Shown here: positions 35,733-64,000 of the stretch, piece after piece
How the letters are laid out: every line of letters starts with the position of its first letter
Numbering within the stretch: the stretch's first letter is position 1
Sequence record: PQ356295.1
Direction: 5' to 3' (one strand)
Length of the DNA stretch: 64,000 nt
Source: Escherichia phage KKE7M
Notes under the pieces: generated by a model
What the model was told of the DNA's origin: nothing
The model's input: the letters and a program-made list of their open reading frames with translations, nothing else
Database searches by the model: none
Program-made: the position numbers and the translations under genes

Positions 35733-36284
35733 TCAGGAAATATCAGATTGTGCTTTTAGATAAACAGCAAGGTCTGTATGCCATTTTCCTAAAAGATTTT
35801 GTCCTTTCCAACAATCCTTATTTTCCACGTCACGATCCCACATCCCCATTTTGATACCATAAATAGAATCATAAGGGCTTGCCTCTACGAACTCCTTATC
35901 TGCGTAAGCGATAAGTTTATTTTTGAGATCTTCATTTTGTGTGTATTTAAGATACAAACCACGCTTGACAATCTTCTCCCGTAAAGAAGCCCAAGTATCT
36001 TCATCGTAATCTTTAACTAATCTACCTAGTCGCTTATAATATGCCTGTTCTTTTTCTCCTGTATATCTTAGATCTCCGGTTAAAATAGAAGATGCAATGT
36101 TGTAATCATAAAACAAACATGCTTTTCTCCACATCATATATTGTTCCACACAAGTAAATTCAACAGAACTTGTAATAGAATTATTATACTTGGGTGCTAA
36201 AGGTTCAATAAAAGATGATAGATACCAGTTGCTAAATTCATCTTTTGCTGAAAAGAAGAACACATACTTATCAGTAATCCGCAT
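35733..36284 (-). CDS. NADAR (YbiA-like, DUF1768) domain protein
   Basis: FFF...FSNWY.S.F ... EQYMMWRKA.LFYD pattern of the NADAR family; AAGGAG RBS. Confidence 0.7.
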   Translation of the reverse strand: MRITDKYVFFFSAKDEFSNWYLSSFIEPLAPKYNNSITSSVEFTCVEQYMMWRKACLFYDYNIASSILTGDLRYTGEKEQAYYKRLGRLVKDYDEDTWASLREKIVKRGLYLKYTQNEDLKNKLIAYADKEFVEASPYDSIYGIKMGMWDRDVENKDCWKGQNLLGKWHTDLAVYLKAQSDIS

Positions 36285-46094: not shown

Positions 46095-46095
46095 A

Positions 46096-47832
46096 ATGGC
46101 TAAGAAAGAGTTGAGTTTTACTCCAACAGAAGAGCAAACAGCTATTAAGGAGGCTTTTCCAGATCATCGGTTTTTAACTATCCAAGCTAAATCTGGATCA
46201 GGAAAAACGTCAACACTTTATTTGCTGGCTAACAGTACAGAAGATCGCATTCTTTACTTAGCTTTCAATAAAAGCATGGCAGAAGAAGCACGGCGTAAGA
46301 TGCCACCAAATGTAGAATGCCGTACATTGCATTCCATTTGCTATCAATTCCTGGATCATCGTTTACGTGCAAAACTGTCACGACCAGAAGGACAGTATGT
46401 TAACGTTGCAGGTACAGGTAGTGAGATAGCAAAGAAATTTAAGATTAATAATCTTATTGATAAACGAGGGAAAACACTTTTAACTCGTGCTATGATTGGT
46501 TTAATGATCAAGCAAACCGTAGGTAAGTTTGAATTTTCGGATGATCCTTTTATCAGCCGTAAACATTTTCCTGGTGTACATCTTGCAGATATTAAAAGAA
46601 AAGGTATTAACGAACACAAACTAATTACAGAAGTAGTTAAGTATGCAAAACAATTGTGGCGAGAGCGCATTGACCCTAACACAGATACTTTGATGACGCA
46701 CGACACCTATGTAAAATTGTTTGAATTGTCTGGTGCTGACCTTGGTTATGACATTATTTTTGGGGATGAATTCCAGGATGTTAACCCTGCATTCTTGTCT
46801 ATTCTGCGGAATGCTAAATCTGCAAAACAAGTAGTGGTGGTGGGAGATGAATATCAGAGCATCTACCAGTTCCGTGGAAGCCAAAATATGATGAAGGAAA
46901 CCTCTACATATGGGGCAGAGCTTCCATTAACTGCTTGCTTCCGTTTTGGCCCCAAAGTGGCAAATATTGCGAATATGATTTTAAGTGATAAAGAACCTTT
47001 GCGTCATCCTTTGGTTGGTAAAGGCTTTGATACTGTAGTAGGTAGCTACAAATCAGATGTTGTAGACTATACAAAACCTTACACTATCATCTTTCGCAAG
47101 AATTTAACCTTGCTTATGGAGGCAATGGATCGTATTGCAGATGGGGAAGAAATTATTATTAACGTAGATACCAGGGATTTTATCTCTATGGTAGATAGTG
47201 TTAATGCTCTTCGGAGAGGAGATATTGAGAAAGTAAAACATGAAACTGTATTACCTTACGCAGACTGGAATGAATTTGTTGAGTGTGCAGAGGCTGATCC
47301 AGATGCTAAACGCTTGTTAAACATTGTAGTTTCTGGTAAGGCAAACACTATAGCACATACACTTAGAACGCATAGAAATTCTCCTACAGCAAAAGTCACA
47401 CTGACTACAGCACATAAGTCTAAAGGTTTGGAGTGGGATCAGGTTATTGTTGCTAATGATTTTCCTTCCAACTATGATAAAAAGACTGGTGAATGGGTAG
47501 GACTAGAAGAGGCAGAGCGAAACCTACTGTATGTAGCGCATACCCGTTGTGTTAAATGCTTACAATGGAACACAACCGTACAGGAGATTATAGATATCAA
47601 CCGTGTTGCAACAGAGAAAGTACCAACAAGCCCTACTTTACCGATCAATGGTATTAAACTTGGTGTATTTGGCGCTGGCACATCTCGAAAAACTGTAGAA
47701 AAATTTGTTGCAGATTCTTTTGATGGTAACTATAATCATGCACAAGCATATGAGAGTTGGCTAGAGGAAGGTGAAGGTGATTTCTTAGGTGAAATAAATC
47801 TTTTACCAGATATAAATAAACTGGTAAACTAA
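46096..47832 (+). CDS. UvrD/Rep-like superfamily 1 DNA helicase
   Basis: TEEQ then Walker A AKSGSGKTST, Walker B IIFGDEFQD, VVVVGDEYQSIYQFRG helicase motif; AAGAGAGG RBS. Confidence 0.8.
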   Translation: MAKKELSFTPTEEQTAIKEAFPDHRFLTIQAKSGSGKTSTLYLLANSTEDRILYLAFNKSMAEEARRKMPPNVECRTLHSICYQFLDHRLRAKLSRPEGQYVNVAGTGSEIAKKFKINNLIDKRGKTLLTRAMIGLMIKQTVGKFEFSDDPFISRKHFPGVHLADIKRKGINEHKLITEVVKYAKQLWRERIDPNTDTLMTHDTYVKLFELSGADLGYDIIFGDEFQDVNPAFLSILRNAKSAKQVVVVGDEYQSIYQFRGSQNMMKETSTYGAELPLTACFRFGPKVANIANMILSDKEPLRHPLVGKGFDTVVGSYKSDVVDYTKPYTIIFRKNLTLLMEAMDRIADGEEIIINVDTRDFISMVDSVNALRRGDIEKVKHETVLPYADWNEFVECAEADPDAKRLLNIVVSGKANTIAHTLRTHRNSPTAKVTLTTAHKSKGLEWDQVIVANDFPSNYDKKTGEWVGLEEAERNLLYVAHTRCVKCLQWNTTVQEIIDINRVATEKVPTSPTLPINGIKLGVFGAGTSRKTVEKFVADSFDGNYNHAQAYESWLEEGEGDFLGEINLLPDINKLVN

Positions 47833-52454: not shown

Positions 52455-53615
52455 ATGTTTACAGTATTCGGCAATCAAATCTTCCTGCGTCAGAAATCTG
52501 GTACAGATATTGAAGAAATTCCAGCAGGAACTTTTGGTGTAGGTGTTACTCAAAGTGGTGAGTTCTTCTTGTATCCTAAAAACGATATGGAAGTCCCTTC
52601 AGTAACATACGGTGATACTGATGATAAATCAGAACGTATTATCAAAACGTTCCTTAGCCGCAAAGGTAAAAACACAGGTGTTCTCCTTGAAGGTACGAAA
52701 GGTAGCGGTAAAACTTTGCAAGCTAAAATGCTGTCTTCTGCTCTTCGTGAAATGGGTATTCCTACTATTTCTATCGGTAGTGCTTTTAATGGTGAAGGCT
52801 TTATCAATTTTATGTCTAAAACCACACAACCTGTGATGATTATGATCGATGAATTTGATAAACTGTATGCTGAAAAAGATGCACAAGATGGTTTGCTTAC
52901 CCTGCTGGATGGTGTTGGTGGCTACGACAAACTGTTTGTATTGACTAAAAATGATGGTTATGTATCAGAATTTTTGCGTAATCGTCCTAGCCGTATTTTC
53001 TACAGTTTTAGCTATAAGAAACTACCTAAAGCTACTATGGATGATTATCTGGCTAAAAATCTGGAGAACAAAGCCTTCTTACCAGATTTTGAAACGCTTT
53101 ATAATCTCTCCGTGGATTTGAACTTTGATATTGTTCAGTCATTAGTAGAAGAACTTAACCGTTACCCTAATGACAAATTCTCTGATGCACTTGCATTGAT
53201 GGGTATCAGTATTACTGAACACCGCTATGCTGCAAAAGAGGTTAAACTTCTGAAAGTTAACGGTGTAGATCGTACAGGAGATGTTTCGGCAGATACCGAT
53301 ATTGACGGTATGACAGCACAAGGTTTGTTTAGCGGTAATCGTTATGTTGTAGCTGTAGACCATAAACTAGGTGAAGAGCATCTTCCTGAAATGGAAGGGA
53401 TCGTTACCGTAGAAGATAAAGATGAAGAAGGTGACTACTACTGGGGTGTAGACCGTATCTTGCTGACGTATGATGAAAAACACATTCGTACAATGGGTGG
53501 TGACGGTTATCACTTTATGTTCACCGATGATAAAGGTAACAACATTGAAGTTGTTATTAAAAACAAAGAACGTAAAAATTACACAGAGTATGTGTTTGGT
53601 GGTCGTTCTTACTAA
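52455..53615 (+). CDS. AAA-family ATPase (paralog 2)
   Basis: Walker A GTKGSGKT, Walker B IMIDEFDK, LLTLLDG ... LFVLTKN; paralog of 37349..38476. Confidence 0.8.
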   Translation: MFTVFGNQIFLRQKSGTDIEEIPAGTFGVGVTQSGEFFLYPKNDMEVPSVTYGDTDDKSERIIKTFLSRKGKNTGVLLEGTKGSGKTLQAKMLSSALREMGIPTISIGSAFNGEGFINFMSKTTQPVMIMIDEFDKLYAEKDAQDGLLTLLDGVGGYDKLFVLTKNDGYVSEFLRNRPSRIFYSFSYKKLPKATMDDYLAKNLENKAFLPDFETLYNLSVDLNFDIVQSLVEELNRYPNDKFSDALALMGISITEHRYAAKEVKLLKVNGVDRTGDVSADTDIDGMTAQGLFSGNRYVVAVDHKLGEEHLPEMEGIVTVEDKDEEGDYYWGVDRILLTYDEKHIRTMGGDGYHFMFTDDKGNNIEVVIKNKERKNYTEYVFGGRSY

Positions 53616-53623
53616 GTGATAAA

Positions 53624-53650
53624 AGGAGGCGAAAGCCTCCTTTATTTATA
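53624..53650 (+). terminator. rho-independent terminator
   Basis: GGAGGC-GAAA-GCCTCC hairpin followed by TTTATTT. Confidence 0.65.
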
Positions 53651-53661
53651 TGGAGGGTATT

Positions 53662-53853
53662 ATGGATCATTATTTTGTTTTTAAAGATAAAGTTGATACC
53701 GCAGGTGGTCACGTTGCTAAAAATGATCGTGACATTAAAGAAGTATTAGGAGATCTGATTAACATTTTAGAACAAAAAGAGTTGCTTTTAGATAAGGATA
53801 TTGCTAGACTTCTTGGTGTGGGGATAAGTGACATACAAAGATTACCATTCTAA
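53662..53853 (+). CDS. hypothetical protein (63 aa)
   Basis: TGGAGGGTATT RBS before internal ATG. Confidence 0.5.
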   Translation: MDHYFVFKDKVDTAGGHVAKNDRDIKEVLGDLINILEQKELLLDKDIARLLGVGISDIQRLPF

Positions 53854-53864
53854 AGGGGAAGAAA

Positions 53865-54020
53865 ATGCTTACAGATGATGAATATAAAGCTATCCAAGAA
53901 AAACTGACGGAGCTTGAAATTCTTGCTGTCAATATTAAAGATCAATCACATGCTGGAAAGTTACTACGTCAAGAGATTAATAAAATTAAGCAGATGATAT
54001 TCTTTTGGACGGAGGATTAA
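53865..54020 (+). CDS. small protein, 51 aa
   Basis: AAAGGGGAAGAAA RBS; stop 1 nt before next ATG; not in ORF track. Confidence 0.45.
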   Translation: MLTDDEYKAIQEKLTELEILAVNIKDQSHAGKLLRQEINKIKQMIFFWTED

Positions 54021-54021
54021 A

Positions 54022-54678
54022 ATGACTGTTAAGCATATTTCTTTTGATGTATGGAATACTCTTATTACTGCTAACCCTTTGTATGCAGAAGAGCGCAACA
54101 AGGTTATTGCCGAGTATGCCTCTTGTTCTGAGGTAGAAGCAGCTACCGTATATAAAGAGGTAAAAACTCTCCTGGATTTAAAAGCAGAAAAAGGCATTTG
54201 TGGAACATCTAGAAATGCTTGGGAAACACTTTCTGCTCATTTGAACATTGAGCTTGATAAAGTAGATGGGTTAAAAAGAGACTGTTTAGCAATGTTTATA
54301 AAACATCCTCCAACATTAAACCCTGAACTTTGCAAGAAGTTGGAAGAGCTAAGTTCAACCTATTCTTTGAGTATTAAGAGCAATACTAATTTTGTACCAG
54401 GTAGCTTCTTAGCTGTCTATTCTGGCTTGACAAAATTACCATTTGACTTTATGCATTTTTCTGATGAGTTTTGCTTGTGTAAACCAGATCCTAGGTTTTT
54501 TAAACTCTCTTTTGATGAAATGGTAACGTTTGATCTCGCACCAGAGGAGATCTTACACGTTGGAGATAGTTTGATTTATGATGGAAAAGCTGTTGACATA
54601 GGAATGAAGTTCTGTCATATTATTAATCCAGAAGACTTGTTGGCTAAACTTAAAAAAGAGGAACTTATTAATGCGTAA
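54022..54678 (+). CDS. HAD-superfamily hydrolase
   Basis: N-terminal ISFDVWNTLI (motif I with nucleophile Asp) and C-terminal HVGDSLIYDGKAVD (motif IV); GGAGGATTAAA RBS. Confidence 0.7.
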   Translation: MTVKHISFDVWNTLITANPLYAEERNKVIAEYASCSEVEAATVYKEVKTLLDLKAEKGICGTSRNAWETLSAHLNIELDKVDGLKRDCLAMFIKHPPTLNPELCKKLEELSSTYSLSIKSNTNFVPGSFLAVYSGLTKLPFDFMHFSDEFCLCKPDPRFFKLSFDEMVTFDLAPEEILHVGDSLIYDGKAVDIGMKFCHIINPEDLLAKLKKEELINA

Positions 54679-55528
54679 TCAAATTCAACATTTTGCTAAT
54701 ACTTTTACTAACCTGAAGGAAGCAAAATTTAACATTGCAGATTATTCCAAGCTAAAGTTTGGTAGTAACCAGGCAGCAAAAAGAATGGGGCGCATTCTGG
54801 CTGAAAGTTTCTTTTCTAAGTATGAAGAACGACTGGTAAATGAAAGTTTTGTTGTTATTCCATCTCCATATAACTATGTGAAAAATGCAGCTACAGTGTT
54901 ATCTGAACATTTTGTAGATCACCTCAACTACCTAATCTCTATCAAAGGAGGTAAAGCAGTGGAGTGGGATATCGTTCATCGTAAAGTGAGCTACATTAAT
55001 GATTATGGATTTCTTAGCAAAGAAGATCGTAAGGCTTTGATCGATGGTGACACTTTCTCTATCAATCGTGATTTCTGGGGTAATAAAACTCTGATTTTCA
55101 TTGATGATGTTAATATTACAGGAACACACGAAGAAAAACTTATTGAAATTTTAGACAAAGAAGGTGTTGAAAACGATACGTTTTTCCTGTACTTTGCAAA
55201 GTATGAAGGTACAGAAGCCAATACCGAAGCTGCACTTAACTTCAACTATATCAACAATCTGGCAGCTTTTATTAAAATGATTAAGCAAGAAACTGATGCT
55301 AAATGTTTGGTTCGTCCTATTAAGTATCTAATGAGTCAAAGCGAAGTTGATTTTAAAATTGCACTTTCACAACTTCCTTTGTATTATGTAGAACAACTGT
55401 TCTTTGGTTGCCTTGCAGAAGGTTACAATAACGTTGAAAAATACAAAGAGAACTTTGATTTCCTACGTCAATTTTTTGAAAGCAACATTATCAACAAATC
55501 TAATGTTAAAGGGGATTATTATGTCTAA
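54671..55528 (+). CDS. phosphoribosyltransferase (type I PRT fold) domain protein
   Basis: PRPP-binding loop TLIFIDDVNITGTHEEK; overlaps both neighbours. Confidence 0.7.
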   Translation: MRNQIQHFANTFTNLKEAKFNIADYSKLKFGSNQAAKRMGRILAESFFSKYEERLVNESFVVIPSPYNYVKNAATVLSEHFVDHLNYLISIKGGKAVEWDIVHRKVSYINDYGFLSKEDRKALIDGDTFSINRDFWGNKTLIFIDDVNITGTHEEKLIEILDKEGVENDTFFLYFAKYEGTEANTEAALNFNYINNLAAFIKMIKQETDAKCLVRPIKYLMSQSEVDFKIALSQLPLYYVEQLFFGCLAEGYNNVEKYKENFDFLRQFFESNIINKSNVKGDYYV

Positions 55529-56237
55529 TAAAGTAATGACTTTCGGAGATCCTATCACCAATATTACAGAAAAAGATTTTGGGCGTGTAGCAACAGATAA
55601 AGATGGTGTCTTAAGAATTCGTGTGCAAGGTATTACAGCACAGGATGAATACGCTGTGTATGTTTCAGGTCTTAACTATATTGATGATCGCATTACACAA
55701 AACTTTGCACTGATCGGTGGTGTAGAGAAAATGTACTGGGAAGATGAAATTGTAATAAGTTATCCAGCAGGTATCGTTGAGGTATACGGTGATCTTTTAG
55801 CAGCAGCCGAGAGAGGCGATATAGACGCTATAGCACACTGCTGTAACTGTTTTTGCACTATGGGTAGTGGTATTGCACCAAAAATTAAAAGCAAGTGGCC
55901 TGGTGCGTTTAAAGCAGATTGTGCCACTAAACGTGGTGATTATAAAAAATTAGGTACGTTTACCAAATATACAGAAAACAATTTGACAATTTATAATTTA
56001 TATGGACAATATGGTTATAGTAGTCGTGAGGAAGGTAAGCGTGACCTGAATTATGAAGCTATCTACAATGCGCTAGATAGTATGGGAGACGATGTTGTAT
56101 CTTCAGGCGGTAAAATTGTAGGTTTACCAATGCTTGGTTGTGGTTTGGCTGGAGGTTCTTGGAATATTGTAAAACTTATGATCGAAGAAACTCTAGTAAA
56201 CAAAGGTTTAAATGTAATTGTTTACAAACTGAAATAA
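55521..56237 (+). CDS. macro-domain-like (ADP-ribose binding/processing) protein
   Basis: DAIAHCCNCFCTMGSGIAPKI and later GLPMLGCGLAGGSW resemble the two glycine-rich macro-domain loops; about 80-aa N-terminal extension. Confidence 0.55.
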   Translation: MSNKVMTFGDPITNITEKDFGRVATDKDGVLRIRVQGITAQDEYAVYVSGLNYIDDRITQNFALIGGVEKMYWEDEIVISYPAGIVEVYGDLLAAAERGDIDAIAHCCNCFCTMGSGIAPKIKSKWPGAFKADCATKRGDYKKLGTFTKYTENNLTIYNLYGQYGYSSREEGKRDLNYEAIYNALDSMGDDVVSSGGKIVGLPMLGCGLAGGSWNIVKLMIEETLVNKGLNVIVYKLK

Positions 56238-56246
56238 GGAGAAAGT

Positions 56247-56453
56247 ATGGCAGGTGTTTTAGCAGTATTAGGTTGTTTTATTGTTGTGTTCTTGATTGTG
56301 TTAATCCCTAGTTGGCTACTGCTTTTAGCATACAATTATATGATTGACATTATCGGCTTAGACTGGCATCATGTTCCTGTAACGTTTTGGAGTGTAGTCT
56401 GTGTGACGTTCATTCTTGCGGTACTCCGTGGTATCTTTCAATCTAACAAATAA
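56247..56453 (+). CDS. small membrane protein (68 aa)
   Basis: AAGGAGAAAGT RBS; two TM helices. Confidence 0.55.
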   Translation: MAGVLAVLGCFIVVFLIVLIPSWLLLLAYNYMIDIIGLDWHHVPVTFWSVVCVTFILAVLRGIFQSNK

Positions 56454-56467
56454 GAGAGGATCTTTAT

Positions 56468-56716
56468 ATGCGTAAAGTAAATGTTGAAGTGCTTGAAAAA
56501 TTTATAAACACTCGTGATTGTACTATCGGCAAGGTTTACGAGGCTATTCTCATTGAAGATGGAGATGAAGTTCCTGCTCCGTATCATGCCTTTAATGGTC
56601 AGGTTAGCAAAGTGGAAGGTGGTCTTGCTATTTGCTTTATTGATGATGTAGGTGATGCTGTAGCTTTCCCTATCATTAACAAAGAAGATAAACTTAAAAT
56701 TACAGAACTGAACTAG
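56468..56716 (+). CDS. hypothetical protein (82 aa)
   Basis: AGAGAGGATC RBS. Confidence 0.55.
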   Translation: MRKVNVEVLEKFINTRDCTIGKVYEAILIEDGDEVPAPYHAFNGQVSKVEGGLAICFIDDVGDAVAFPIINKEDKLKITELN

Positions 56717-56793
56717 TTGACTTTCTTTAAAAACAGTTTATAGTATAAGACATAGAGCGGAGGATTGTCCTCCGCATTAAAGAGGAGAAGAGA

Positions 56794-57771
56794 ATGCAAC
56801 TGGGTTTCCCAATTATTGATGTGGTTGTTTTAGTGGGTATTTTAGTGTTGTCGATTTGTATTGATTTCTTTGGACACAGAGAAAACAAAGAGATTTCATT
56901 TAAATCGGCAGTTGGTTGGTCAATTTTCTGGATTGGGGTATCATTAGCCTACTATGGTTTTGTATACTTCCAACACGGTGCTGATTTTGCGAGCTTGTTC
57001 TTGAGTGGATATGTGTTGGAGAAATCTCTTTCTGTAGATAACTTAGTAGTATTTGTGGCAGTATTCGCAAGTTTTGGTATTAAAAGCACACACTTGCAAC
57101 ACAAGATTCTACTTTGGGGTATTGCAGGTGCGATTGTCTTCCGAGGTGTGTTTGTAGCAGTAGGCACTTACTTGTTGAGTTTGGGCTGGTATGTTAATAT
57201 CTTCTTCGGTGCGGTCATCCTTTTCTGTGCAGCTAAAATGGTATTCGCGGGAGATAATGACGCAGAAGTTGATTACTCTAAACACTGGGCTACTCGCATT
57301 GTTCGTAAGCTGTTCCCTGTATCTGATCAGATGGATGGTGAGAAGTTCTTCACAATCAAAAATGGTGTTCGTGTACCAACTCCGGCTCTGGTTTGTGTGT
57401 TTGTAATGGAAATGGTTGACGTAATCTTTGCAGTAGACTCTGTTCCAGCAGTAATTGCAGTGACACAAGAACCTCTGCTTGTATTTTCTTCAATGCTGTG
57501 TGCAATTTTAGGTCTACGTGCTCTGTTCTTTGTCCTTAGTGTTGCACTGAAGTATTTGGTTCATCTGGAGAAAGCAGTTATCGTAGTCCTGGTGTTTGTG
57601 GGTGTAAAACTGATGTATCACCCGTTTGCAGAAACTCTGCACGCAAAAGTCAGTTTCCTGCCAGCACACATTGATCCGACGATCAGTATGTATATTGTGT
57701 TAGGTACTCTTGGGCTGGGTGTTATTGCAAGTTTAATCTTCCCTGAAAAAGAAGACCAGACTGTTGCTTAA
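56794..57771 (+). CDS. terC: TerC-family integral membrane protein
   Basis: Multi-pass membrane protein with EKSLSVDNLVVF and AVDSVPAVIAVTQEPLLVFSSMLCAILGLRALFF TerC signatures; AGAGGAGAAG RBS. Confidence 0.8.
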   Translation: MQLGFPIIDVVVLVGILVLSICIDFFGHRENKEISFKSAVGWSIFWIGVSLAYYGFVYFQHGADFASLFLSGYVLEKSLSVDNLVVFVAVFASFGIKSTHLQHKILLWGIAGAIVFRGVFVAVGTYLLSLGWYVNIFFGAVILFCAAKMVFAGDNDAEVDYSKHWATRIVRKLFPVSDQMDGEKFFTIKNGVRVPTPALVCVFVMEMVDVIFAVDSVPAVIAVTQEPLLVFSSMLCAILGLRALFFVLSVALKYLVHLEKAVIVVLVFVGVKLMYHPFAETLHAKVSFLPAHIDPTISMYIVLGTLGLGVIASLIFPEKEDQTVA

Positions 57772-57777
57772 TTCATT

Positions 57778-57800
57778 AAGCCCCTTCGGGGGCTTTGTTG
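57778..57800 (+). terminator. rho-independent terminator
   Basis: AGCCCC-TTCG-GGGGCT hairpin followed by TTGTTG. Confidence 0.6.
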
Positions 57801-57810
57801 AGGTGATCTG

Positions 57811-58017
57811 ATGGTGGTTTTACGTGTTCTTTGGATTCTGTTTGAAAATATTTGTTTTGCTTTAGGGTTATTTTGTTTGATTTTTATCTTGACAACATAT
57901 ATTGATAACCATACAATTACTATCAACAGGAACGGAGAACAGATGTATTGTTTCTCTAGGGATTTTAAAAATTGTGTTGAGACTTTAAATGAGAGGGTTA
58001 CAAATGAAAAACATTAA
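57811..58017 (+). CDS. small membrane protein (68 aa)
   Basis: GAGGTGATCTG then ATG; hydrophobic N-terminus. Confidence 0.45.
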   Translation: MVVLRVLWILFENICFALGLFCLIFILTTYIDNHTITINRNGEQMYCFSRDFKNCVETLNERVTNEKH

Positions 58018-58594
58018 ATCTTTTATTGTTGCAGTTGTATTAGGTAGTGCATTGCTGGTAGGTTGTGATGATTCTGAAAATGTACAAAATCAACGTTACC
58101 AACAAACACCAAATCAGATGGTAGATGAACAATATGTGAATCAGCCTGCACCTCAAGTTGTTCAAGCAGCACCTGCACAACCTTCAACAGTTGTTGTGCA
58201 AGGAGGCGGCAGTGGTTCTTCTGGTGTAGGTGACTTTGCTACAGGTATGCTTCTTGGTCATATGTTGAGTGGTAACAGTGGCGGTGGTGGTTATAGAGAT
58301 GGTGGTAGCAATACAACCATTATTAATAACAATGCTGCCCCTACAACTAACAGTAAATCATATACAACACAAAAGCGTAGTTTTTATGATAAACCTGTAA
58401 ATACATATACAACCACTAAACAAAACACAATTAAGCAGCAAAGTGTACAAACGTATTCACGCCCATCAACAACAAAAGTGAATAGTGATTACTCTGCTCG
58501 TAAGTCTTACTCAAGTCCTATTAGCTCTTATAGTAAGTCTTCGAAAAGTTATTCTTCGTCGAAACGTAGTTTTAGTAGCTCACGTCGTCGTTAA
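58004..58594 (+). CDS. lipoprotein with glycine-zipper and Ser/Tyr/Lys-rich tail
   Basis: Signal peptide ending in lipobox LLVGC; GGGSGSSGVGDFATGMLLGHMLSGNSGGGG glycine zipper; low-complexity C-terminus. Confidence 0.6.
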   Translation: MKNIKSFIVAVVLGSALLVGCDDSENVQNQRYQQTPNQMVDEQYVNQPAPQVVQAAPAQPSTVVVQGGGSGSSGVGDFATGMLLGHMLSGNSGGGGYRDGGSNTTIINNNAAPTTNSKSYTTQKRSFYDKPVNTYTTTKQNTIKQQSVQTYSRPSTTKVNSDYSARKSYSSPISSYSKSSKSYSSSKRSFSSSRRR

Positions 58595-58629
58595 TAATTT
58601 AATACAGATTAAATAAGAAGGAGAAACAG

Positions 58630-59481
58630 ATGAAACTAGAAGTTGGTAAAGTGTATCGCCTGGAAGGTTGGATCTTTAATCAAGAAATTCTTGAGAAGAA
58701 TAAAGATGGTTTTGAGTTTGTTGGTACTACCAAAGAAAGTATGCACGATGACGAATATTGTAAATTCGTTGGTAAAAATACAGGTCAAGAACAATTTTGC
58801 TTTAAAAGCGCAATCGGTGATTATGCTTCTGTAATGCCAACACCAGAAAAAACTTCGAAGCCATATACTGTCTTTGGTGTAAAACTTGAAGAACTGGTAG
58901 AACACCCACGTTTTGAAGAGTTTAAGGTTGCTGCAATGTGCAAGCATTCTGAAATTAAGATACATAATTTGTTTGATTTAGAAGATCGTTTTGATATCTT
59001 TATGTATGATCGCAGGGGAAAGCATTTTGATGCAACGACTTCAAAATTTGCTGCAACAGAGGATATTAAAATCCTTGATGTTGATACCTTTCTTGATAGT
59101 GTATCGTTTGTATTCATTCCTAAGTACAAAAAACGTAGTGATCATAAACGTGTGAAAGGAACTCCTCGTAAGAAACGTACTGTAAACAAAGCAACTTTGC
59201 ATTTCACTTCTGGTGATAAGTATACTCTCAAAGGGTTTGAAAGTGTTTTGTATGATGCTGGAACGGGTAATATCAAGTTTATTATTAAGGCAACCTACAA
59301 AGGTACGGTATTGCACGAAGAGGCTGTTACACTGCCTGTATTCGATATCTCTCGTGTTGAGGTACGGGGTGTTAAAGAGTCCTTCGATCTGGATTTCTTA
59401 ACCACTAATGCTACTGGTTATGTTAATCTGGAAGCAGATGGAGCATTTATTACTACAAATTATTTAGATATGTTTGTTTAA
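58630..59481 (+). CDS. hypothetical protein (283 aa)
   Basis: AAGAAGGAGAAACAG RBS. Confidence 0.6.
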   Translation: MKLEVGKVYRLEGWIFNQEILEKNKDGFEFVGTTKESMHDDEYCKFVGKNTGQEQFCFKSAIGDYASVMPTPEKTSKPYTVFGVKLEELVEHPRFEEFKVAAMCKHSEIKIHNLFDLEDRFDIFMYDRRGKHFDATTSKFAATEDIKILDVDTFLDSVSFVFIPKYKKRSDHKRVKGTPRKKRTVNKATLHFTSGDKYTLKGFESVLYDAGTGNIKFIIKATYKGTVLHEEAVTLPVFDISRVEVRGVKESFDLDFLTTNATGYVNLEADGAFITTNYLDMFV

Positions 59482-59549
59482 TACTTAATTTGTGTTATGA
59501 TGGTGGTACAGAGGTATCACCATCTACTAAAGAATATGGAGGAAATTGA

Positions 59550-60653
59550 ATGTCCAGTCCTTTTATCAGTGCCGTAAAAAGCAAACCGTCTGAAATGAGT
59601 GTATTCACGGCAACAACAGAAAAAAGTAAGTCTTTGTTTGCTCCAAGTGCTATGGATGCAAGTCCTGTATATGCCCCTGCTGTTGCACGACCTGTACAAA
59701 TGCTGCCTCCAATGTCTCGTGAAGAGATTGAACAGGTTGGTGCTGATGCAGGACTTACTCTTCGTAACCTTAATGCTGAAGTGCTTAAACACCAGCGTTC
59801 ATCTCAGGGAGATGAAATGAGTGAACGTTTAACTGCACTTATTAAGCAAGCAAAGCAACTTGATCCTAATTCTATTAAACAATCTAAAGGTTTAGGTAAG
59901 TTAGTTAAGAAAGTATTAGGTATGAAAGAAGATTTGTTTGGAGAATTTGACACCATCAATAATCGTATTGAAGGTTTGGTAAAGACACTACAAACAGACT
60001 TGAAAAAAGAAGAAGATTCTTTACGATATCTGCAACGTTTAGAAGAGGCTATTGCAAAATATGCTCTTAGCTTAAACAGGGATATAGAGCTTCTAACAGC
60101 TACTTATGAAAAAGAAGAAGTTCGCCTTAATACACTACCTGAAAATGAAGTAGAAGAGCGTCAACGTACTCGTGATACTATGGATCTGCTTGAAATTCGT
60201 ATTGCAGACCTGAAAGCCTTGCGTTTACTGTGTGTTCAGATGGGGCCACGTGTACAAAGTATGCAGAAAGTATCTGCAAGTTTGATGCGATCAGCACGTA
60301 ACATTGTGAATAATGTTATCCCTGCTTACTCTGCAAACTTTTCTATGTATATTGAAAGTCTACGCCAGAAGAAAGCAGCCGATACGCAGAACAATGTACT
60401 GAATGAGTTTAATGCTGCTATTGCAATGGGTAGTGATCTGGCTGCACAAAACCAAATTGAAGCTACGCAACTTGCTAATCGTCAAGTATTGGATATTGAA
60501 ACATTACGTCGCGATCAAGAAAACTTAGTTAAAATGTTGGAAGAAACTAACCGAATCAACACTGAAGCCCGTGCTGCTCGTATTGATTACATTCAAGAAG
60601 TGCAATCTCTTGAAGATGGTATGATTCAAACTGTTAAACGTGGTCTACTTTAA
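59550..60653 (+). CDS. telA: TelA-like (toxic anion resistance family) coiled-coil protein
   Basis: About 370 aa, largely alpha-helical/coiled-coil, length and pattern consistent with TelA/KlaA; sits between TerC and TerD. Confidence 0.55.
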   Translation: MSSPFISAVKSKPSEMSVFTATTEKSKSLFAPSAMDASPVYAPAVARPVQMLPPMSREEIEQVGADAGLTLRNLNAEVLKHQRSSQGDEMSERLTALIKQAKQLDPNSIKQSKGLGKLVKKVLGMKEDLFGEFDTINNRIEGLVKTLQTDLKKEEDSLRYLQRLEEAIAKYALSLNRDIELLTATYEKEEVRLNTLPENEVEERQRTRDTMDLLEIRIADLKALRLLCVQMGPRVQSMQKVSASLMRSARNIVNNVIPAYSANFSMYIESLRQKKAADTQNNVLNEFNAAIAMGSDLAAQNQIEATQLANRQVLDIETLRRDQENLVKMLEETNRINTEARAARIDYIQEVQSLEDGMIQTVKRGLL

Positions 60654-60666
60654 GGAGAAATATATT

Positions 60667-60873
60667 ATGAATATTAAAATTTACAAACTGTCTGGTTCTA
60701 TGATCGCTGTCCAGTACGACAATGAAGATCGTTATGTTCTCCTCCAGGATGCTTGGTTAGATGATCCTAATGTATTTACTGTCCTGCGAGAACTACGTTC
60801 TGTCTATACCTATTCTTCTAAAGATGGTTTTGATAGTTCAACGATGGAATTGGTAAAAGAGGAGAATGTGTAA
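60667..60873 (+). CDS. hypothetical protein (68 aa)
   Basis: TAAGGAGAAATATATT RBS. Confidence 0.5.
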   Translation: MNIKIYKLSGSMIAVQYDNEDRYVLLQDAWLDDPNVFTVLRELRSVYTYSSKDGFDSSTMELVKEENV

Positions 60874-61073
60874 TGAGTAAAGATATTCACTTAACTCGTG
60901 AAGAGTTACAAACCATTATGGAAGATGCTTTCATTGATGGTTGGAAACAAGGTCAAGAGTCAGATTGGTATGATGCCGAAGATTTTTTGTATTATCATAT
61001 GACTGCACCTGTAGATGAGCAAACACACTCTGAAACAACTTTGGCTATAATTGATCTTAAGGCTGGTGTATAA
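60873..61073 (+). CDS. hypothetical acidic protein (66 aa)
   Basis: ATG overlaps upstream stop; GGAGAATG upstream. Confidence 0.5.
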   Translation: MSKDIHLTREELQTIMEDAFIDGWKQGQESDWYDAEDFLYYHMTAPVDEQTHSETTLAIIDLKAGV

Positions 61074-61636
61074 TGGGATGTTTTAGTTTCTTGTGCAAAG
61101 AATCTGGTCATGCTGCTCTTTCTACCTCTTTCGATGGCTCTCCTTGCTACCTATTTCTTTTGAAAGGTGGTAAAGTTGTTGAAGAGATGTATGGCAATTA
61201 TGATAGCTATGGTAGTGTTTTCTCTAACGAAGAAGATAAACATGGCAATCGTAAAAGATTCAAGTGGTCTATGCCTTGGGAAGAAGTTTGTAATTTGATG
61301 TTCTCTTCCGATCTTGGGGATGGTATTGCTATGGTGTTAGAAGAGCACTTTACAGGTGAGATCCCAACAGAAAGATCTGAAGAAGACCCTAACCAGGGCT
61401 GGGGTGATGGAGAAGAAGATCCAGATTGCTTCTTCAGCACTGAAAATAATAAATTTAAACGTGTTGACAATCCTTACCACAAAGTGCATAATACTTGCAT
61501 TGAGACAGAAGAAGACTCAAAGCTAGAAATTGAAGATGATTTAGTTGTAACTATCTCTTTAAACGAGTTGCAAAAGATCACCAGAGAGGCTTTCTATTTA
61601 GGCTTGAGAGCAGGTAAAGGAGAAGACAGTGCTTAA
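61073..61636 (+). CDS. hypothetical acidic protein (187 aa)
   Basis: TAATGG overlap with upstream gene. Confidence 0.55.
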   Translation: MGCFSFLCKESGHAALSTSFDGSPCYLFLLKGGKVVEEMYGNYDSYGSVFSNEEDKHGNRKRFKWSMPWEEVCNLMFSSDLGDGIAMVLEEHFTGEIPTERSEEDPNQGWGDGEEDPDCFFSTENNKFKRVDNPYHKVHNTCIETEEDSKLEIEDDLVVTISLNELQKITREAFYLGLRAGKGEDSA

Positions 61637-61898
61637 ATTTAATATCAAAGACGACAAATCAGATGAACCTAAATGTTTTGGAGAACTTGACGCAGGTGAT
61701 ACATTCGTATATTATGTTGCCTATCAAGATGCTGGTTTAGATACGTTCAGAAACTTAGTGTTTATTAAGGTTAATACAAACCAAGCAATGTGTCTGAATG
61801 GTTCACAAAGAGGTCAACTTAACTGTATTTTATATGATACAGAAGTAGTAGAAGTGGATTTAGAAGTTACTAACATTACACTCAGAAAGGAGAAATAA
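61629..61898 (+). CDS. hypothetical protein (89 aa), GTG start
   Basis: AAAGGAGAAGACA then GTG. Confidence 0.5.
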   Translation: MLKFNIKDDKSDEPKCFGELDAGDTFVYYVAYQDAGLDTFRNLVFIKVNTNQAMCLNGSQRGQLNCILYDTEVVEVDLEVTNITLRKEK

Positions 61899-61899
61899 T

Positions 61900-62694
61900 A
61901 TGTCCAATAAAATCAGTCTTAAAAAACGTCAAGAAACTCTTACTGTATCTCTGCGTAAGAAAAAGATTAACGATGTTGTTCTTCGTGTCGGTAGCGCCTT
62001 AGATATTTCGGGCAGTATGTGTGAACTGTATCGTGATGGCACTGTTAGTGATTTTGTAGGTAAACTGCTGCCGTTTGGTATGAAGTTTGATGATAATGCA
62101 CAGATTGACATGTGGGCTTTCAATAGTTCTTCTTTTGAACTGCCTCCTGCAACGGCTGATGTGTATGATGATTATGTCGGCTCTTGCATGTCTAATGTTT
62201 GCATCAACGGTGGTACAGCTTATGCTCCAGTAATGCAAGAGATTTATGATACATACTTCGGCAGTGTACCTATGAAAAATATTACACGCGAAGTCGTTGA
62301 GTATGAAGAAGTCCCAGCTAAGGGTTTCCTTGCTAAACTAACTGGTAAAAAAGAACTTGTAGAAGTAACACGTACTGTTGTAGAACAGGTTGTAGATACT
62401 GATGCACAAGTTGATCGTACTCCTGCAATGATTTTCTTCCAAACTGACGGGGAAAACATGGATACTTCAGCAGTACGTAGCTTACTGAACAAACACCGCA
62501 ATACGCCTGTTTACTGGTTTATGGTTGGTGTAGGTAATGCAAACTTTAAATTCCTGAAAGACTTGGCAAAAGAATACGATAATGTTGATTTTATCGGTAT
62601 TGCAGATTTGTCCTTGTCTGATGAAGAACTTTACGATAAACTGTTATCCGAAGAGTTTGGCGAGTGGGTTAAAAAATTTGGAGCAAAAGCGTAA
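61900..62694 (+). CDS. von Willebrand factor A (vWA) domain protein, TerY-like
   Basis: MIDAS motif LDISGSM after a TerD-like ISLKK ... VSL N-terminal segment; AGAAAGGAGAAATAAT RBS. Confidence 0.65.
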   Translation: MSNKISLKKRQETLTVSLRKKKINDVVLRVGSALDISGSMCELYRDGTVSDFVGKLLPFGMKFDDNAQIDMWAFNSSSFELPPATADVYDDYVGSCMSNVCINGGTAYAPVMQEIYDTYFGSVPMKNITREVVEYEEVPAKGFLAKLTGKKELVEVTRTVVEQVVDTDAQVDRTPAMIFFQTDGENMDTSAVRSLLNKHRNTPVYWFMVGVGNANFKFLKDLAKEYDNVDFIGIADLSLSDEELYDKLLSEEFGEWVKKFGAKA

Positions 62695-62766
62695 AAAACG
62701 CTTGACTTTGTAGAAAAGATTAGTAAAATAGACAACGTAAATTAACAACAAAGGAGATAATAAATT

Positions 62767-63363
62767 ATGACTCAGAAAATTTCCCTGAAAAAAGGTTCTA
62801 GCGAAAAAGTTTCTCTGAAAAAGATTGCACCAGCACTGAAACGCATTCGTCTGGAATTCTCTTGGAAATCTAACGAAAAACTGGATCTGGATGTTAGTGC
62901 TCTGATTTGCCGACACAACGCATCTGGTCTGCCGGAACTGTTGTCTCCTCGCCACCTGGTGTGCTACGCACAGAAATTTGATCCTGAACGTTCTACTTTT
63001 GCAGGTGAAGATGTTCGTGACGGTGTAGGACAAATGGAGCAGATTGATGTTACACTGGATAATATCTCTGCTGAAGCACAGGAAATTGCATTCGTAATTA
63101 CTATTGATGACGAAACGGGTAAGAAACGCCTTGGTCACGCTACCGAAGGTTTCCTTAAAATCTTCGATGATGAACGTAATGTTGAACTGCTGGACTTTGA
63201 CTTCTTGGCTCCAGAACTTGCAGGTAACACCATTTGCCACGTTGCCTCCCTGGTACGGGAAGATAGTGAATGGAAACTGAAAGCATATGGTGTAGGTAAA
63301 GCTGGGCTTGACATTTACGATGTAGTTAAAGCGTTTGGCGCTGGCGACGATTGGTTCGAGTAA
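62767..63363 (+). CDS. terD: TerD-family stress protein
   Basis: ISLKKG ... VSLKK start, LDLDVSALI, GEDVRDGVGQMEQIDV, LLDFDFL and WKLKAYGVG match TerD domain blocks; AAAGGAGATAATAAATT RBS. Confidence 0.8.
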   Translation: MTQKISLKKGSSEKVSLKKIAPALKRIRLEFSWKSNEKLDLDVSALICRHNASGLPELLSPRHLVCYAQKFDPERSTFAGEDVRDGVGQMEQIDVTLDNISAEAQEIAFVITIDDETGKKRLGHATEGFLKIFDDERNVELLDFDFLAPELAGNTICHVASLVREDSEWKLKAYGVGKAGLDIYDVVKAFGAGDDWFE

Positions 63364-63371
63364 TAAATCAT

Positions 63372-63395
63372 AGCGCCCTTCGGGGCGCATATTTA
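63372..63395 (+). terminator. possible terminator (weak T-tract)
   Basis: GCGCCC-TTCG-GGGCGC hairpin followed by ATATTTAAAA. Confidence 0.4.
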
Positions 63396-63415
63396 AAATA
63401 AAAGAGGAGAAAACA

Positions 63416-64000
63416 ATGAGTATTACTTTAGAAGGTCAAAAACTTATTCGTAGCGGCAATTTTCTTGTAGATATTGACAACAATGAAGATTATGCTTTAG
63501 AAGTTAGTGATGTGCTGTTTGATGCTTTGCAGTCTGGTTTCAATTTTGAAGTTTATGAAGTAATCCGTGGAACTAAACTCAGAGAAACCCTTGGATCATC
63601 TAGTGATGTTTATTCGGCAATCTGGCAATATTTCGGGTTAATGGAGGGTAAGACATATCTTACTGATAGTTATTCTGAAGATGTTGTTTATCTTGATATG
63701 GAAGAGTTTCGTCGTCTGTTCAAAAGTGAAGAAAATGAAGAAGAGGGCGAACTTTTTGAAGGAATTACTCTTGAAGGTAATGTTGAAATTGTGTATAAAG
63801 CAGGGAAAACATTCCATTTGCGCGAAAACGGTAAAGCAAAAGTTGATTTTGTAAACAAGACAGTGACAACTGAACATAATTATCTTAAAGATGGTCAACC
63901 AGCTTTTGAACGTGTAAAAATTAAATTTAAAGTGTTGTCTGCACTAGTTACGGATCAAGAACGTATTGATTTTGTAGAAGATGGTGTAGTAACTCATACA
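63416..64000 (+). CDS. hypothetical protein, 3-prime truncated by window end
   Basis: AAAAGAGGAGAAAACA RBS, ATG at 63416, open to end of window. Confidence 0.5.
   Translation, partial: MSITLEGQKLIRSGNFLVDIDNNEDYALEVSDVLFDALQSGFNFEVYEVIRGTKLRETLGSSSDVYSAIWQYFGLMEGKTYLTDSYSEDVVYLDMEEFRRLFKSEENEEEGELFEGITLEGNVEIVYKAGKTFHLRENGKAKVDFVNKTVTTEHNYLKDGQPAFERVKIKFKVLSALVTDQERIDFVEDGVVTHT

Follow-up and report, generated by a model that had tools for sequence, protein, structure and literature searches.

The block of genes at positions 54,022 to 63,363 of the window, the 64,000-nucleotide stretch of Escherichia phage KKE7M (PQ356295.1) analysed here, appears to hold two functionally separate things, a phage Ter membrane module and, beside it, an independent macro gene directed against ADP-ribosylation, and we give this reading a probability of about one half. 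The module is of the phage type and comprises a HAD-PRTase_3 cassette together with TerC/Alx, TelA, vWA-TerF-like and TerD proteins, with a lipoprotein and small membrane proteins interspersed (Table 1). The macro gene is considered separate because it is far more widely spread than the PRTase, because adjacency of the two genes is limited to Stephanstirmvirinae and a metagenomic relative (L019), and because its product resembles Tk.4/AdfM and DarG. Profile searches against Pfam, PHROG and NCBIfam confirmed the HAD, PRTase, macro, TerC, TelA, vWA/MIDAS and TerD assignments of an earlier note on this DNA, as did the lipobox, read from the sequence, for the lipoprotein.

Table 1. Features of the block, its flanks and the NADAR gene (window coordinates).
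Feature	Coordinates	Strand	Basis or remark
Terminator-like hairpin after upstream AAA ATPase gene	53622..53643	+	9-bp stem then T-rich tail; consensus match only
HAD-superfamily (subfamily IA) hydrolase, PRTase_3 partner	54022..54678	+	Pfam PF00702, PHROG, alignment
Type I phosphoribosyltransferase, PRTase_3 (ComF-like)	54671..55528	+	PRPP loop LIFIDDVNITGTHE; Pfam 142 bits
Macrodomain protein	55521..56237	+	Pfam Macro 31.2 bits vs cut-off 22
Two-TM small membrane protein, 68 aa	56247..56453	+	Hydrophobic sequence; adjoins macro and TerC genes
ORF, 82 aa	56468..56716	+	PHROG 17459 (function unknown)
Sigma70-like promoter TTGACT-16-TATAGT, then GC-rich hairpin in short TerC leader	56717..56775	+	
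TerC/Alx-family integral membrane protein, putative metal-ion (Mn2+-type) transporter	56794..57771	+	Pfam TerC 134 bits
Small hydrophobic ORF, 68 aa	57811..58017	+	Position conserved; weak DUF6693 match
Predicted lipoprotein	58004..58594	+	Signal peptide, lipobox LLVG/C (cleavage at the slash)
Soluble protein, 283 aa	58630..59481	+	Positional orthologue in all three Stephanstirmvirinae lineages
TelA-family all-helical protein	59550..60653	+	Pfam TelA 118 bits
Four small ORFs: 60640 (77 aa), 60873 (66 aa), 61073 (187 aa), 61629 (89 aa)	60640..61898	+	
vWA-TerF-like protein	61900..62694	+	Pfam PF10138 134 bits
Sigma70-like promoter TTGACT-16-TAAAAT, gap before terD	62702..62729	+	Consensus match only
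TerD-domain protein	62767..63363	+	Pfam TerD 98 bits
GC-rich hairpin GCGCCCTTCGGGGCGC directly 3' of terD, 3' end of block	63373..63388	.	
NADAR protein, AdfN(Bas60) orthologue, outside block	35733..36284	-	Pfam NADAR 125.8 bits

The window belongs to Justusliebigvirus (phi92-like), with 98.8% identity to BASEL phage Bas62 (JohannJBalmer), and the block is located in the early/middle gene region of this virulent E. coli myophage. Since phAPEC8 (Phapecoctavirus) and Klebsiella phage KP13-26 keep the gene order at protein identities of 35-82%, the cluster, whose synteny spans three Stephanstirmvirinae lineages, is not a chance grouping. Further ORFs, passed over in the earlier note, are interspersed (56247, 56468, 57811, 58630, 60640, 60873, 61073 and 61629), several of them conserved, and two small ORFs precede the HAD gene; the products directed to the membrane are TerC, one lipoprotein and two small TM proteins. 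Upstream, the hairpin after the AAA ATPase gene probably delimits the HAD-PRTase-macro transcription unit on its 5' side, and the first ORF beyond the terD hairpin does not encode a Ter protein. The assembly had been thought uncharacterised in a virus; however, fairly complete Ter systems that include PRTase and HAD have been described computationally in phages, with competition against superinfecting phages as their proposed role (Iyer et al. 2021, PMC7824862), and GenBank records of phi92-like phages already annotate the Ter, PRTase and HAD genes of the block. The arrangement is thus not new.

The HAD gene was directly upstream of PRTase_3 in every one of the 26 homologous contexts examined (16 IMG/VR loci, 8 other phage or metagenomic loci, one MAG-binned phage contig and the Rhizobium plasmid pRL10), and the two genes, which overlap by 8 nt in the window, form an invariant, obligate pair. 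Conservation of the PRTase is strong, 42 alignment columns being invariant, among them the DDVxITGxHE PRPP loop, and the protein carries an additional C-terminal all-alpha domain; structure prediction, as the earlier note had proposed, returned a confident type I PRTase fold (AF2). The structurally nearest protein is ComF, for which nucleotide synthesis is not known. The HAD protein cleared the PF00702 cut-off of 26.4 bits marginally, with 27.5, and matched the PHROG 'hydrolase' family with 396 bits. Its motif I, SFDVWNTL, places a Trp at the usual position of the Asp+2 general acid, the invariant residues being D9, W11, T13, S120, K154, D182 and D187, and FDVWNTL is common to the protein and its nearest PDB entry, 2om6. 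Because this Trp is invariant and the general acid absent, a simple nucleotide 5'-phosphatase step is not assured.

Genes for TerC, TerD, vWA-TerF or TelA were located within 10 kb of HAD-PRTase_3 in eight unrelated phage contigs, which, together with the invariance of the pair, argues that the link between cassette and Ter genes is real; the connection previously drawn to the Ter-associated PRTase and HAD module predicted to make a nucleoside-like metabolite in bacteria is thereby borne out. Alternatively, HAD-PRTase_3 may be a cassette of nucleotide metabolism or counter-defence that works on its own, for instance by consuming or producing a particular base or nucleoside; cassette and Ter genes would then lie close together only because both are early accessory genes, with no mechanistic coupling. 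The cassette does stand alone on pRL10, and no Ter gene was found within 10-12 kb of it on Rhizobium plasmids or within 10-14 kb in XaC1, CcrColossus, RHph_TM61 and five IMG/VR contigs, so that its product may not be Ter-specific; moreover, Rhizobium phages contribute 11 of the 156 phage records with PRTase homologues and are absent from the ten most frequent genera of the TelA and TerD searches. We nevertheless consider such autonomy unlikely, as at least nine independent phage lineages carry flanking Ter genes in differing gene orders, which is hard to obtain by chance, and the Ter association was reported independently for bacteria and phages (PMC7824862). In addition, XaC1, CcrColossus and Brevundimonas phages have a TerD-like gene at another place in the genome or in the phage group (in the genome itself for XaC1, CcrColossus and one Brevundimonas phage), and the same holds for TelA in Caulobacter and Brevundimonas phages.

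The macro protein consists of a macro domain of the TARG1/SCO6735/DarG class (residues about 88-238) and an N-terminal extension (residues 1 to about 85) common only to close relatives. It matched DarG in PADLOC (5.8e-14) and NCBIfam (3e-13), as well as the PDB structures 5e3b (2e-15), TARG1 (3e-10) and DarG 5m31 (7e-4), although the catalytic Lys/Asp of TARG1 are absent, with GQYG and GCGLAGG in their place. Its identity to Tk.4 of the T4-like phage PP01 is 34% (E = 2e-21); Tk.4 of T4 (AdfM) is reported as an anti-DarTG2 factor, knockout of tk.4 sensitising T4 to DarTG2 (bioRxiv 10.1101/2025.11.20.689424). Bearing on the reading of the macro gene is the NADAR gene outside the block, whose product is 99% identical to the Bas62 protein; AdfN(Bas60), which three phages including Bas62 are said to encode, neutralises DarT1 in experiment (PMC11825919). 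The macro gene most likely encodes a counter-defence enzyme in its own right, one that frees DNA of ADP-ribose. It would remove ADP-ribose from phage DNA modified at thymidine by DarT2-type defence, and would complement the phage NADAR AdfN, which would remove guanosine-linked ADP-ribose.

The HAD, PRTase and macro genes had instead been grouped as a nucleotide-processing trio. They would then form one pathway making or degrading an ADP-ribose-like or nucleotide-derived molecule, acting with Ter at the membrane, for example against NAD-depleting or abortive-infection immunity. The three genes are contiguous, and both junctions overlap as described, by 8 nt each; the overlap of PRTase and macro is found in the genus Justusliebigvirus, and an AAGGGG Shine-Dalgarno sequence lies 7 nt upstream of the macro ATG at 55521. 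Three Stephanstirmvirinae lineages and L019 share the order HAD-PRTase-macro-TM68-TerC, which together with the overlap makes co-function of the macro protein with HAD-PRTase possible, and a PRTase/HAD/macro grouping recurs, since in other phages macro homologues lie close to NAMPT, a PRTase without homology to PRTase_3, as well as to a HAD_SAK_2 phosphatase and a PRPP synthetase. However, a gap in phAPEC8 and another ORF in KP13-26 come between the genes, and no adjacent macro gene was found in the 18 HAD-PRTase_3 loci (about 15 independent lineages) examined outside Stephanstirmvirinae/L019. Homologues of the macro protein outnumber those of the PRTase about 20-fold (about 2,908 phage records against 156), the nearest ones outside the subfamily residing in NAMPT/NUDIX/NADAR/SIR2 islands, and the phAPEC8 annotators place them also in FelixO1-, rV5- and PVP-SE1-type phages. 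As the direct homologue T4 AdfM also has a defined stand-alone phenotype, a three-enzyme pathway seems very unlikely to us. No link to NAD-depleting immunity was found, and no NAD-salvage gene or enzyme was seen in or near the block. Hence, the domain calls and the link of HAD-PRTase to Ter in the earlier note stand, whereas viral novelty, the trio as a unit and the NAD-depletion link are not supported.

Among the Ter proteins, the TelA protein has diverged strongly from bacterial TelA, and its AF2 model is all-alpha with helices of 75-95 residues, at low confidence (pLDDT 58). The vWA protein carries the DxSxS MIDAS motif as ALDISGSM; a TerD-like N-terminus suggested for it was rejected, the resemblance being confined to a 20-residue motif (11/20 identical, E = 0.087). 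The TerD protein is 100% identical to phi92 gp172 and aligns to Klebsiella TerD 2kxt (E = 8.6e-15), keeping the first DxDxS calcium motif, while the acidic GDNxTGEGDGDDE loop is degenerate. Of the accompanying proteins, that of 56247 shares 58-60% identity with the same-position proteins of phAPEC8 and KP13-26 and had no significant Pfam match. The lipoprotein, whose mature part is of low complexity and Q/S/G-rich with a basic tail, has positional orthologues at 35-53% identity and likewise no match in Pfam. Orthologues of the 58630 protein are 30-43% identical, and no family in Pfam, NCBIfam or PADLOC matched it. ORF 61073 is mostly deleted in one near-identical IMG/VR genome and absent from the KP13-26 lineage. 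Promoter-like sites occur in the intergenic gaps upstream of terC, the lipoprotein gene and terD, so that, by consensus, at least part of the Ter module has host sigma70-like promoters; in phAPEC8, the annotators marked a host-type promoter at the site corresponding to the one before terC.

The same genes could serve metal or redox homeostasis and not conflict, TerC/Alx exporting Mn2+ or a related cation and TerD, vWA and TelA buffering Ca2+ or other metals, and they would thereby sustain the metabolism of the infected cell, for instance in an anaerobic gut, a setting to which the neighbouring class III ribonucleotide reductase genes point. For the 'TerC/Alx family metal homeostasis' model (TIGR03718), TerC passes the curated threshold (321 against 246 bits), both TerD and vWA/MIDAS have folds that bind metal, nrdD and nrdG are found immediately upstream, in synteny with phAPEC8, and recent work ties Klebsiella terC to resistance against both zinc and tellurite (PMC12054061). 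On the other hand, the calcium loop of TerD is degenerate as noted, nrdDG are not adjacent to the block in KP13-26, and no Rfam family, including the yybP-ykoY Mn2+ riboswitch, matched the terC leader. Moreover, the obligatory HAD-PRTase cassette, the lipoprotein and TelA are left unexplained, and we regard a homeostatic role as improbable.

For the favoured reading, a Ter membrane module beside a separate macro gene, the domain content and the plasmid ter operons, with their phage-inhibition and colicin-resistance phenotypes, suggest a role in membrane protection or exclusion, the phage module being their would-be viral counterpart. PRTase_3 would couple some base with PRPP, and the product would be turned into a nucleoside-like small molecule by the HAD enzyme. 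TerD, with its Ca2+/ligand-binding domain, the vWA/MIDAS protein and the helical TelA may assemble beneath the inner membrane around the TerC transporter, and this assembly would alter the membrane and ion homeostasis of the infected cell. As a result, competing phages, pore-forming colicins and membrane-depolarising abortive-infection effectors would be unable to stop the infection early. The Ter-bearing phage is tractable and has E. coli K-12 as a host.

Profile searches supported all of the proteins that the earlier note had named from the sequence of the Ter block (forward genes 54022-63363; see the table), and the translational overlaps described there were borne out, with the HAD/PRTase and PRTase/macro junctions sharing 8 nt each; a good Shine-Dalgarno sequence precedes the ATG of the macro gene at 55521. 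The TerD-like N-terminus ascribed to the vWA protein shrank to a motif of 20 residues, 11 of them identical (E = 0.087). Nine interspersed ORFs had been missed, including a two-TM 68-aa protein (TM68), a second small hydrophobic ORF, a 283-aa soluble protein (p283, 58630-59481) and four small ORFs, and these gave no significant family match in Pfam, NCBIfam or PADLOC. A search of ten unassigned ORFs or segments for overlooked Ter domains gave only sub-threshold noise in Pfam (E <= 5) and nothing in NCBIfam or PADLOC. An ORF at 63417, completed from the phage BME3 sequence, was considered as a second TerD 3' of the block and rejected, having neither a Pfam match nor similarity to TerD. The AF2 model of TelA, built with 23 homologues, is helical and of low confidence (pLDDT 58, pTM 0.40). 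A 187-aa ORF (61073-61636) is dispensable to the cluster, as it is largely absent from the IMG/VR genome UViG_2974717474 (L021 16403-16495), in which the PRTase is 100% identical to that of KKE7M. In a metagenomic relative (L019 2037-3005), a protein that combines collagen repeats with a YadA-like membrane anchor is encoded between the macro and TerC genes.

Features of the Ter block and its intergenic gaps, in window coordinates
Feature	Position	Strand	Evidence or context
Terminator-like hairpin	53622-43		Before small ORFs and HAD; motif scan
HAD hydrolase	54022-54678	+	Pfam 27.5 bits, cut-off 26.4 (marginal); PHROG hydrolase 396 bits
PRTase_3 ("ComF-like")	54671-55528	+	Pfam 142 bits
Macro	55521-56237	+	Pfam 31 bits
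Sigma70-like promoter	56717-44		Gap 5' of terC; motif scan
TerC	56794-57771	+	Pfam 134 bits; NCBIfam TIGR03718 TerC/Alx metal-homeostasis 321 bits vs 246
Sigma70-like promoter	57889-917		Gap 5' of lipoprotein gene; motif scan
Lipoprotein	ORF start 58004	+	Signal peptide and lipobox LLVG|C in sequence
TelA	59550-60653	+	Pfam 118 bits
vWA-TerF-like	61900-62694	+	Pfam 134 bits; DxSxS MIDAS motif (ALDISGSM)
Sigma70-like promoter	62702-29		Gap 5' of terD; motif scan
TerD	62767-63363	+	Pfam 98.2 bits vs 25.3; aligns to 2kxt and 3ibz

The carrier of the block is a non-jumbo E. coli myophage of the Stephanstirmvirinae with a size of 145 kb. From end to end, the block matches Escherichia phage JohannJBalmer (BASEL Bas62) at 98.8% identity, and for the other top-scoring Justusliebigvirus records the figure is 97.8-98.7%; 54 phage records cover 80% or more of the block, and the TerD protein is 100% identical to gp172 of phi92. 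GenBank labels for tellurite resistance, TerC, vWA, phosphoribosyltransferase, HAD-like and macrodomain proteins are already present. The block sits in a long forward gene array, 3' of nrdD/nrdG and an AAA ATPase, and the order HAD-PRTase-macro-TM68-TerC-small ORF-lipoprotein-p283-TelA-...-vWA-TerD is conserved in phAPEC8 (Phapecoctavirus) and Klebsiella phage KP13-26, whose counterparts of the block proteins show 35-82% protein identity. Two AAA/nSTAND-like ATPase genes lie on opposite strands, at 52455-53615 (+, 386 aa) and 37349-38476 (-, 375 aa); the former adjoins the Ter block 5' and is syntenic in KP13-26, but phAPEC8 lacks it there. In JohannJBalmer, the UvrD/Rep-family helicase is annotated with an intein (L012 18273-21047, a 2,775-nt gene), and the KKE7M helicase (46057-47832, +) is the short intein-less form, like that of BME3. 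Five "Campylobacter phage" records with C. jejuni as host, including MG065639, MG065645, MG065656 and MG065689 (H28-H30, H33), also match the block, three of them being listed in the DNA search at ~97.8% identity. This host label looks doubtful and points to contamination or mis-assignment.

Candidate promoters and a terminator, named here where they fall in intergenic gaps (see the table), are accompanied by a GC hairpin directly 3' of terD. Genome-wide, such motifs occur at chance level (49 promoter-like vs 46.9 expected, 9 terminator-like vs 7.9 expected), so that these sites are weak evidence; the annotation of phAPEC8 independently places a host-type promoter 5' of terC. TerC/Alx genes are frequently under yybP-ykoY control; the leader 5' of terC is ~50 nt here, and an Rfam search of 53000-64000 at E <= 1 found no riboswitch. 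A metal-homeostasis role of the Ter genes, to which the TerC/Alx family model matched by the TerC protein points, is given a lower probability; in this block TerC stands together with TelA, vWA and TerD proteins and the HAD-PRTase pair.

The arrangement is not without viral precedent, since phage Ter systems with PRTase and HAD have already been described (PMC7824862) and the genes were already annotated. Ter components were reported in jumbo "and certain other related smaller tailed phages", including one relatively complete Ter set with PRTase and HAD (Iyer et al., 2021; PMC7824862); the phi92 group is not named in the accessible part of that text, and a similar remark on phage Ter genes appears in a Klebsiella phage paper. 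The systems of Acinetobacter phage vB_AbaM_ME3 and the Caulobacter jumbo phages (Viruses 13:63) are likewise borne by tailed phages and share with KKE7M the PRTase and HAD "signal biosynthesis" genes, TerD, TerC, a TerF-type vWA protein and TelA, as well as the functional hypothesis of competition with superinfecting phages, whereas the KKE7M cluster belongs to a non-jumbo phage and is interleaved with a lipoprotein, several small membrane ORFs and a macro gene. TerD, a neighbouring TerC, TelA, a TerF/TerY-type vWA protein and linked PRTase and HAD genes place the block among Ter-dependent stress-response systems sensu Anantharaman, Iyer and Aravind (2012 Ter paper PMC4104200, as represented in PMC7824862). 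The cluster is thus an already annotated addition to a known class of phage-borne Ter systems.

Compared to the Enterobacterial ter determinants (terZABCDEF and terWXY; IncHI2 R478, E. coli O157 island), the block shares TerC, a TerD-domain protein, a vWA protein and a PRTase/HAD-type module. However, canonical terZABCDEF combines TerB with multiple TerD paralogues (TerZ/A/D/E/F) in a fixed order, while Pfam and NCBIfam scans found one TerD-domain ORF and no TerB in any block ORF; the block also has TelA and lacks ATP-grasp, kinase and PP2C genes. A TerY-P system, in which the vWA protein TerY goes with a PP2C phosphatase and a Ser/Thr kinase, was not recognised either, as neither the vWA nor any Ter protein had a PADLOC match and the block holds no kinase or PP2C. 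Moreover, the phage TerD has low similarity to Klebsiella TerD (E = 8.6e-15), so that the block was not recently captured from the host. The phenotypes of the Enterobacterial determinants are membrane-linked: they inhibit phages and confer resistance to tellurite and to pore-forming colicins; our literature search found no experiments on any phage Ter gene. The Bacillus subtilis envelope-stress operon yceCDEFGH resembles the block in being TerB-less and in having TerD paralogues, the TerC-like YceF and the TelA-like YceH, but is chromosomal, controlled by stress sigma factors, and without HAD-PRTase_3 or vWA-TerF genes.

The link of PRTase and HAD to Ter genes proposed in the earlier note was confirmed, both in the block and in at least nine phage lineages in which Ter genes lie beside this two-gene cassette. 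PRTase_3 homologues were found in 156 phage records, including Xanthomonas, Rhizobium, Brevundimonas and Caulobacter phages, and a HAD gene lies immediately 5' of PRTase_3 in all 26 homologous contexts examined (16 loci from IMG/VR, 8 further loci from phages or metagenomes, a phage contig binned into a MAG and the Rhizobium plasmid pRL10); HAD-PRTase_3 is hence an obligate pair. In eight phage contigs unrelated to Stephanstirmvirinae (L006, L007, L008, L025, L029, L031, L033 and L034), TerC, TerD, vWA-TerF or TelA genes are located no more than 10 kb from the cassette, with differing gene orders. The association of this pair with Ter genes is strong, yet separable: on Rhizobium plasmids and in five contigs from IMG/VR the cassette has no Ter genes in its vicinity, and in XaC1, CcrColossus and one Brevundimonas phage it stands apart from Ter genes, with TerD-like proteins encoded elsewhere. 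These contexts would suit an autonomous HAD-PRTase cassette, a reading to which we assign a lower probability, and the recurrent proximity of Ter genes in different orders speaks for a functional link. On pRL10 of Rhizobium johnstonii (L011 107669-109142), the cassette is beside repA, with no Ter gene among those listed within 12 kb, and fifteen Rhizobium plasmid records match it, the plasmids being conjugative. Scanning bacterial genome contigs for PRTase_3 gave a single locus, a Phapecoctavirus-like contig inside a MAG; as the peptide patterns were strict and Rhizobium plasmids carry the cassette, we stop short of calling the family phage-restricted.

PRTase_3 is strongly constrained, with 42 invariant columns among 49 sequences, including DDVxITGxHE. 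The structure prediction called for previously gave a confident type I PRTase core (AF2 pLDDT 92) with an extra all-alpha C-terminal domain; structural matches do not discriminate the acceptor base. The protein has the PRPP-binding loop of type I PRTases (acidic pair and T-G-T). Identity to the PRTase domain of ComF/ComFC (PDB 7p0h) is 12%, and PRTase_3 differs from ComF in lacking the N-terminal zinc-finger region, in its C-terminal domain and in always being paired with a HAD hydrolase. In this partner, motif I reads D9-V-W11-N-T13 (SFDVWNTL), so that the nucleophile Asp is kept and the general acid at Asp+2 is absent; the Trp at +2 is invariant across 7 diverse homologues (alignment A2) and also occurs in 2om6, the closest PDB entry. 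Motifs II-IV are present and invariant (S120, K154, G181-D182...D187; GDxxxD). Given this Trp, the label "nucleotide phosphatase" is an assumption.

The macro gene behaves differently from the cassette, and the HAD-PRTase-macro trio proposed previously as a unit was not upheld. Macro homologues occur in ~2,908 phage records, yet only in Stephanstirmvirinae and a single metagenomic relative do they lie next to PRTase_3. The Bas62 orthologue of the KKE7M macro gene is bas62_0068. A true three-enzyme pathway would fit the overlapping junctions of KKE7M; even within the subfamily, phAPEC8 has a gap between PRTase and macro and KP13-26 an intervening ORF, and we give this pathway a lower probability. 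Full-length coverage is limited to 58 records because an N-terminal extension of ~85 residues is confined to close relatives. This extension (55521-55775) is homologous to the N-terminus of the separate KP13-26 ORF (L003 14847-15410), which encodes 187 aa between PRTase and macro and has no family match; the two arrangements reflect the fusion or fission of a gene. The nearest macro homologues beyond the subfamily (~48% identity) are found in phage islands with NAMPT, NUDIX, NADAR, HAD_SAK_2 and SIR2.

The macro domain belongs to the SCO6735/TARG1/DarG class (PDB search; DarG 5m31 7e-4), and the only PADLOC/NCBIfam matches of the protein are DarG models (5.8e-14; 3e-13). It is not a DarG antitoxin in architecture, as the match spans positions 4-147 of a 338-position model with 49.8 bits vs a cut-off of 250, the DarT-binding C-terminal domain of DarG is lacking, and no DarT-like gene was present among the neighbouring genes scanned. 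The protein is homologous to Tk.4 of the T4-like phage PP01 (BLASTP 34% identity, E = 2e-21). In T4, tk.4 (renamed adfM) was shown genetically to be needed for DarTG2 resistance (2025 preprint, bioRxiv 10.1101/2025.11.20.689424). AdfM and the KKE7M protein are both stand-alone phage macrodomains with the variant motifs YNLY(G/T)QY and GCG(L/I)AGG, but AdfM lacks the N-terminal extension and its gene is located in the tk region rather than beside PRTase_3. KKE7M also encodes a NADAR protein (35733-36284, -; 125.8 bits) with 99% identity to the Bas62 protein, and AdfN(Bas60), an anti-DarT1 NADAR protein that its authors describe as encoded by Bas60, Bas61 and Bas62, neutralised DarT1 experimentally (PMC11825919). 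The phage thus carries two ADP-ribose erasers, the macro activity being predicted, and the macro protein would be the thymidine-specific companion to the guanosine-specific NADAR enzyme. Most simply read, the macro gene would be an independent anti-ADP-ribosylation gene lying by chance beside the Ter module, and a counter-defence gene of a kind known in its own right is probably the best account of the "added macro domain". Adjoining the NADAR gene, 36285-37274 (-) encodes a protein in which a T5orf172 domain accompanies a CapR homology domain (the latter at 87.6 bits), and which is called "endonuclease" in BME3. A DUF4326 protein is encoded at 44343-44729 (+; 77 bits), a family predicted to bridge NAD+-utilising signalling systems with DNA modification (Iyer et al., 2021; PMC7824862).

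For the Ter module itself, it has been proposed that PRTase and HAD make a nucleoside or nucleotide signal sensed by TerB/TerD, that TerC alters membrane transport while TelA and TerF-vWA form sub-membrane structures, and, as a suggestion, that phages use the system against superinfecting phages (PMC7824862). We infer that the KKE7M module may work in this way, because the block is membrane-centred (TerC, lipoprotein, two small TM proteins) and has possible host-type promoters; caution is warranted in that TerD has a degenerate Ca2+ loop, the HAD is atypical and the PRTase is ComF-like. We consider it very unlikely that in Stephanstirmvirinae HAD, PRTase_3 and macro cooperate, such that a ribosylated molecule is built and then trimmed or recycled, gating a phage-built TerC/TelA/vWA/TerD membrane complex. 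Under such cooperation, PRTase_3 and the Trp-containing HAD could be the builders and the N-terminally extended macrodomain the trimmer or recycler, and the gated complex could protect the infected cell from superinfection or membrane-targeting abortive infection. If true, this would be a virus-encoded membrane defence under small-molecule control with no characterised precedent.

The role of Ter proteins has been unclear since the 1990s, Ter biology is still unsolved, and we know of no identified product of the Ter-associated PRTase/HAD. The KKE7M cluster is a minimal Ter set, with one TerD, TerC, TelA, one vWA protein and the HAD-PRTase cassette, and its carrier is virulent, belongs to a BASEL collection lineage and plates on E. 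coli K-12, making it a convenient place to solve Ter. Of these proteins, K-12 has only a TerC homologue, Alx, and to our knowledge this host lacks TerD, TelA and TerF, a nearly Ter-free background in which clean deletions and metabolomics are feasible. Setting the macro gene apart from the Ter module keeps a false three-enzyme pathway out of annotation, and predicts a second, thymidine-specific anti-DarT activity beside AdfN(Bas60) in these therapeutic-candidate phages.
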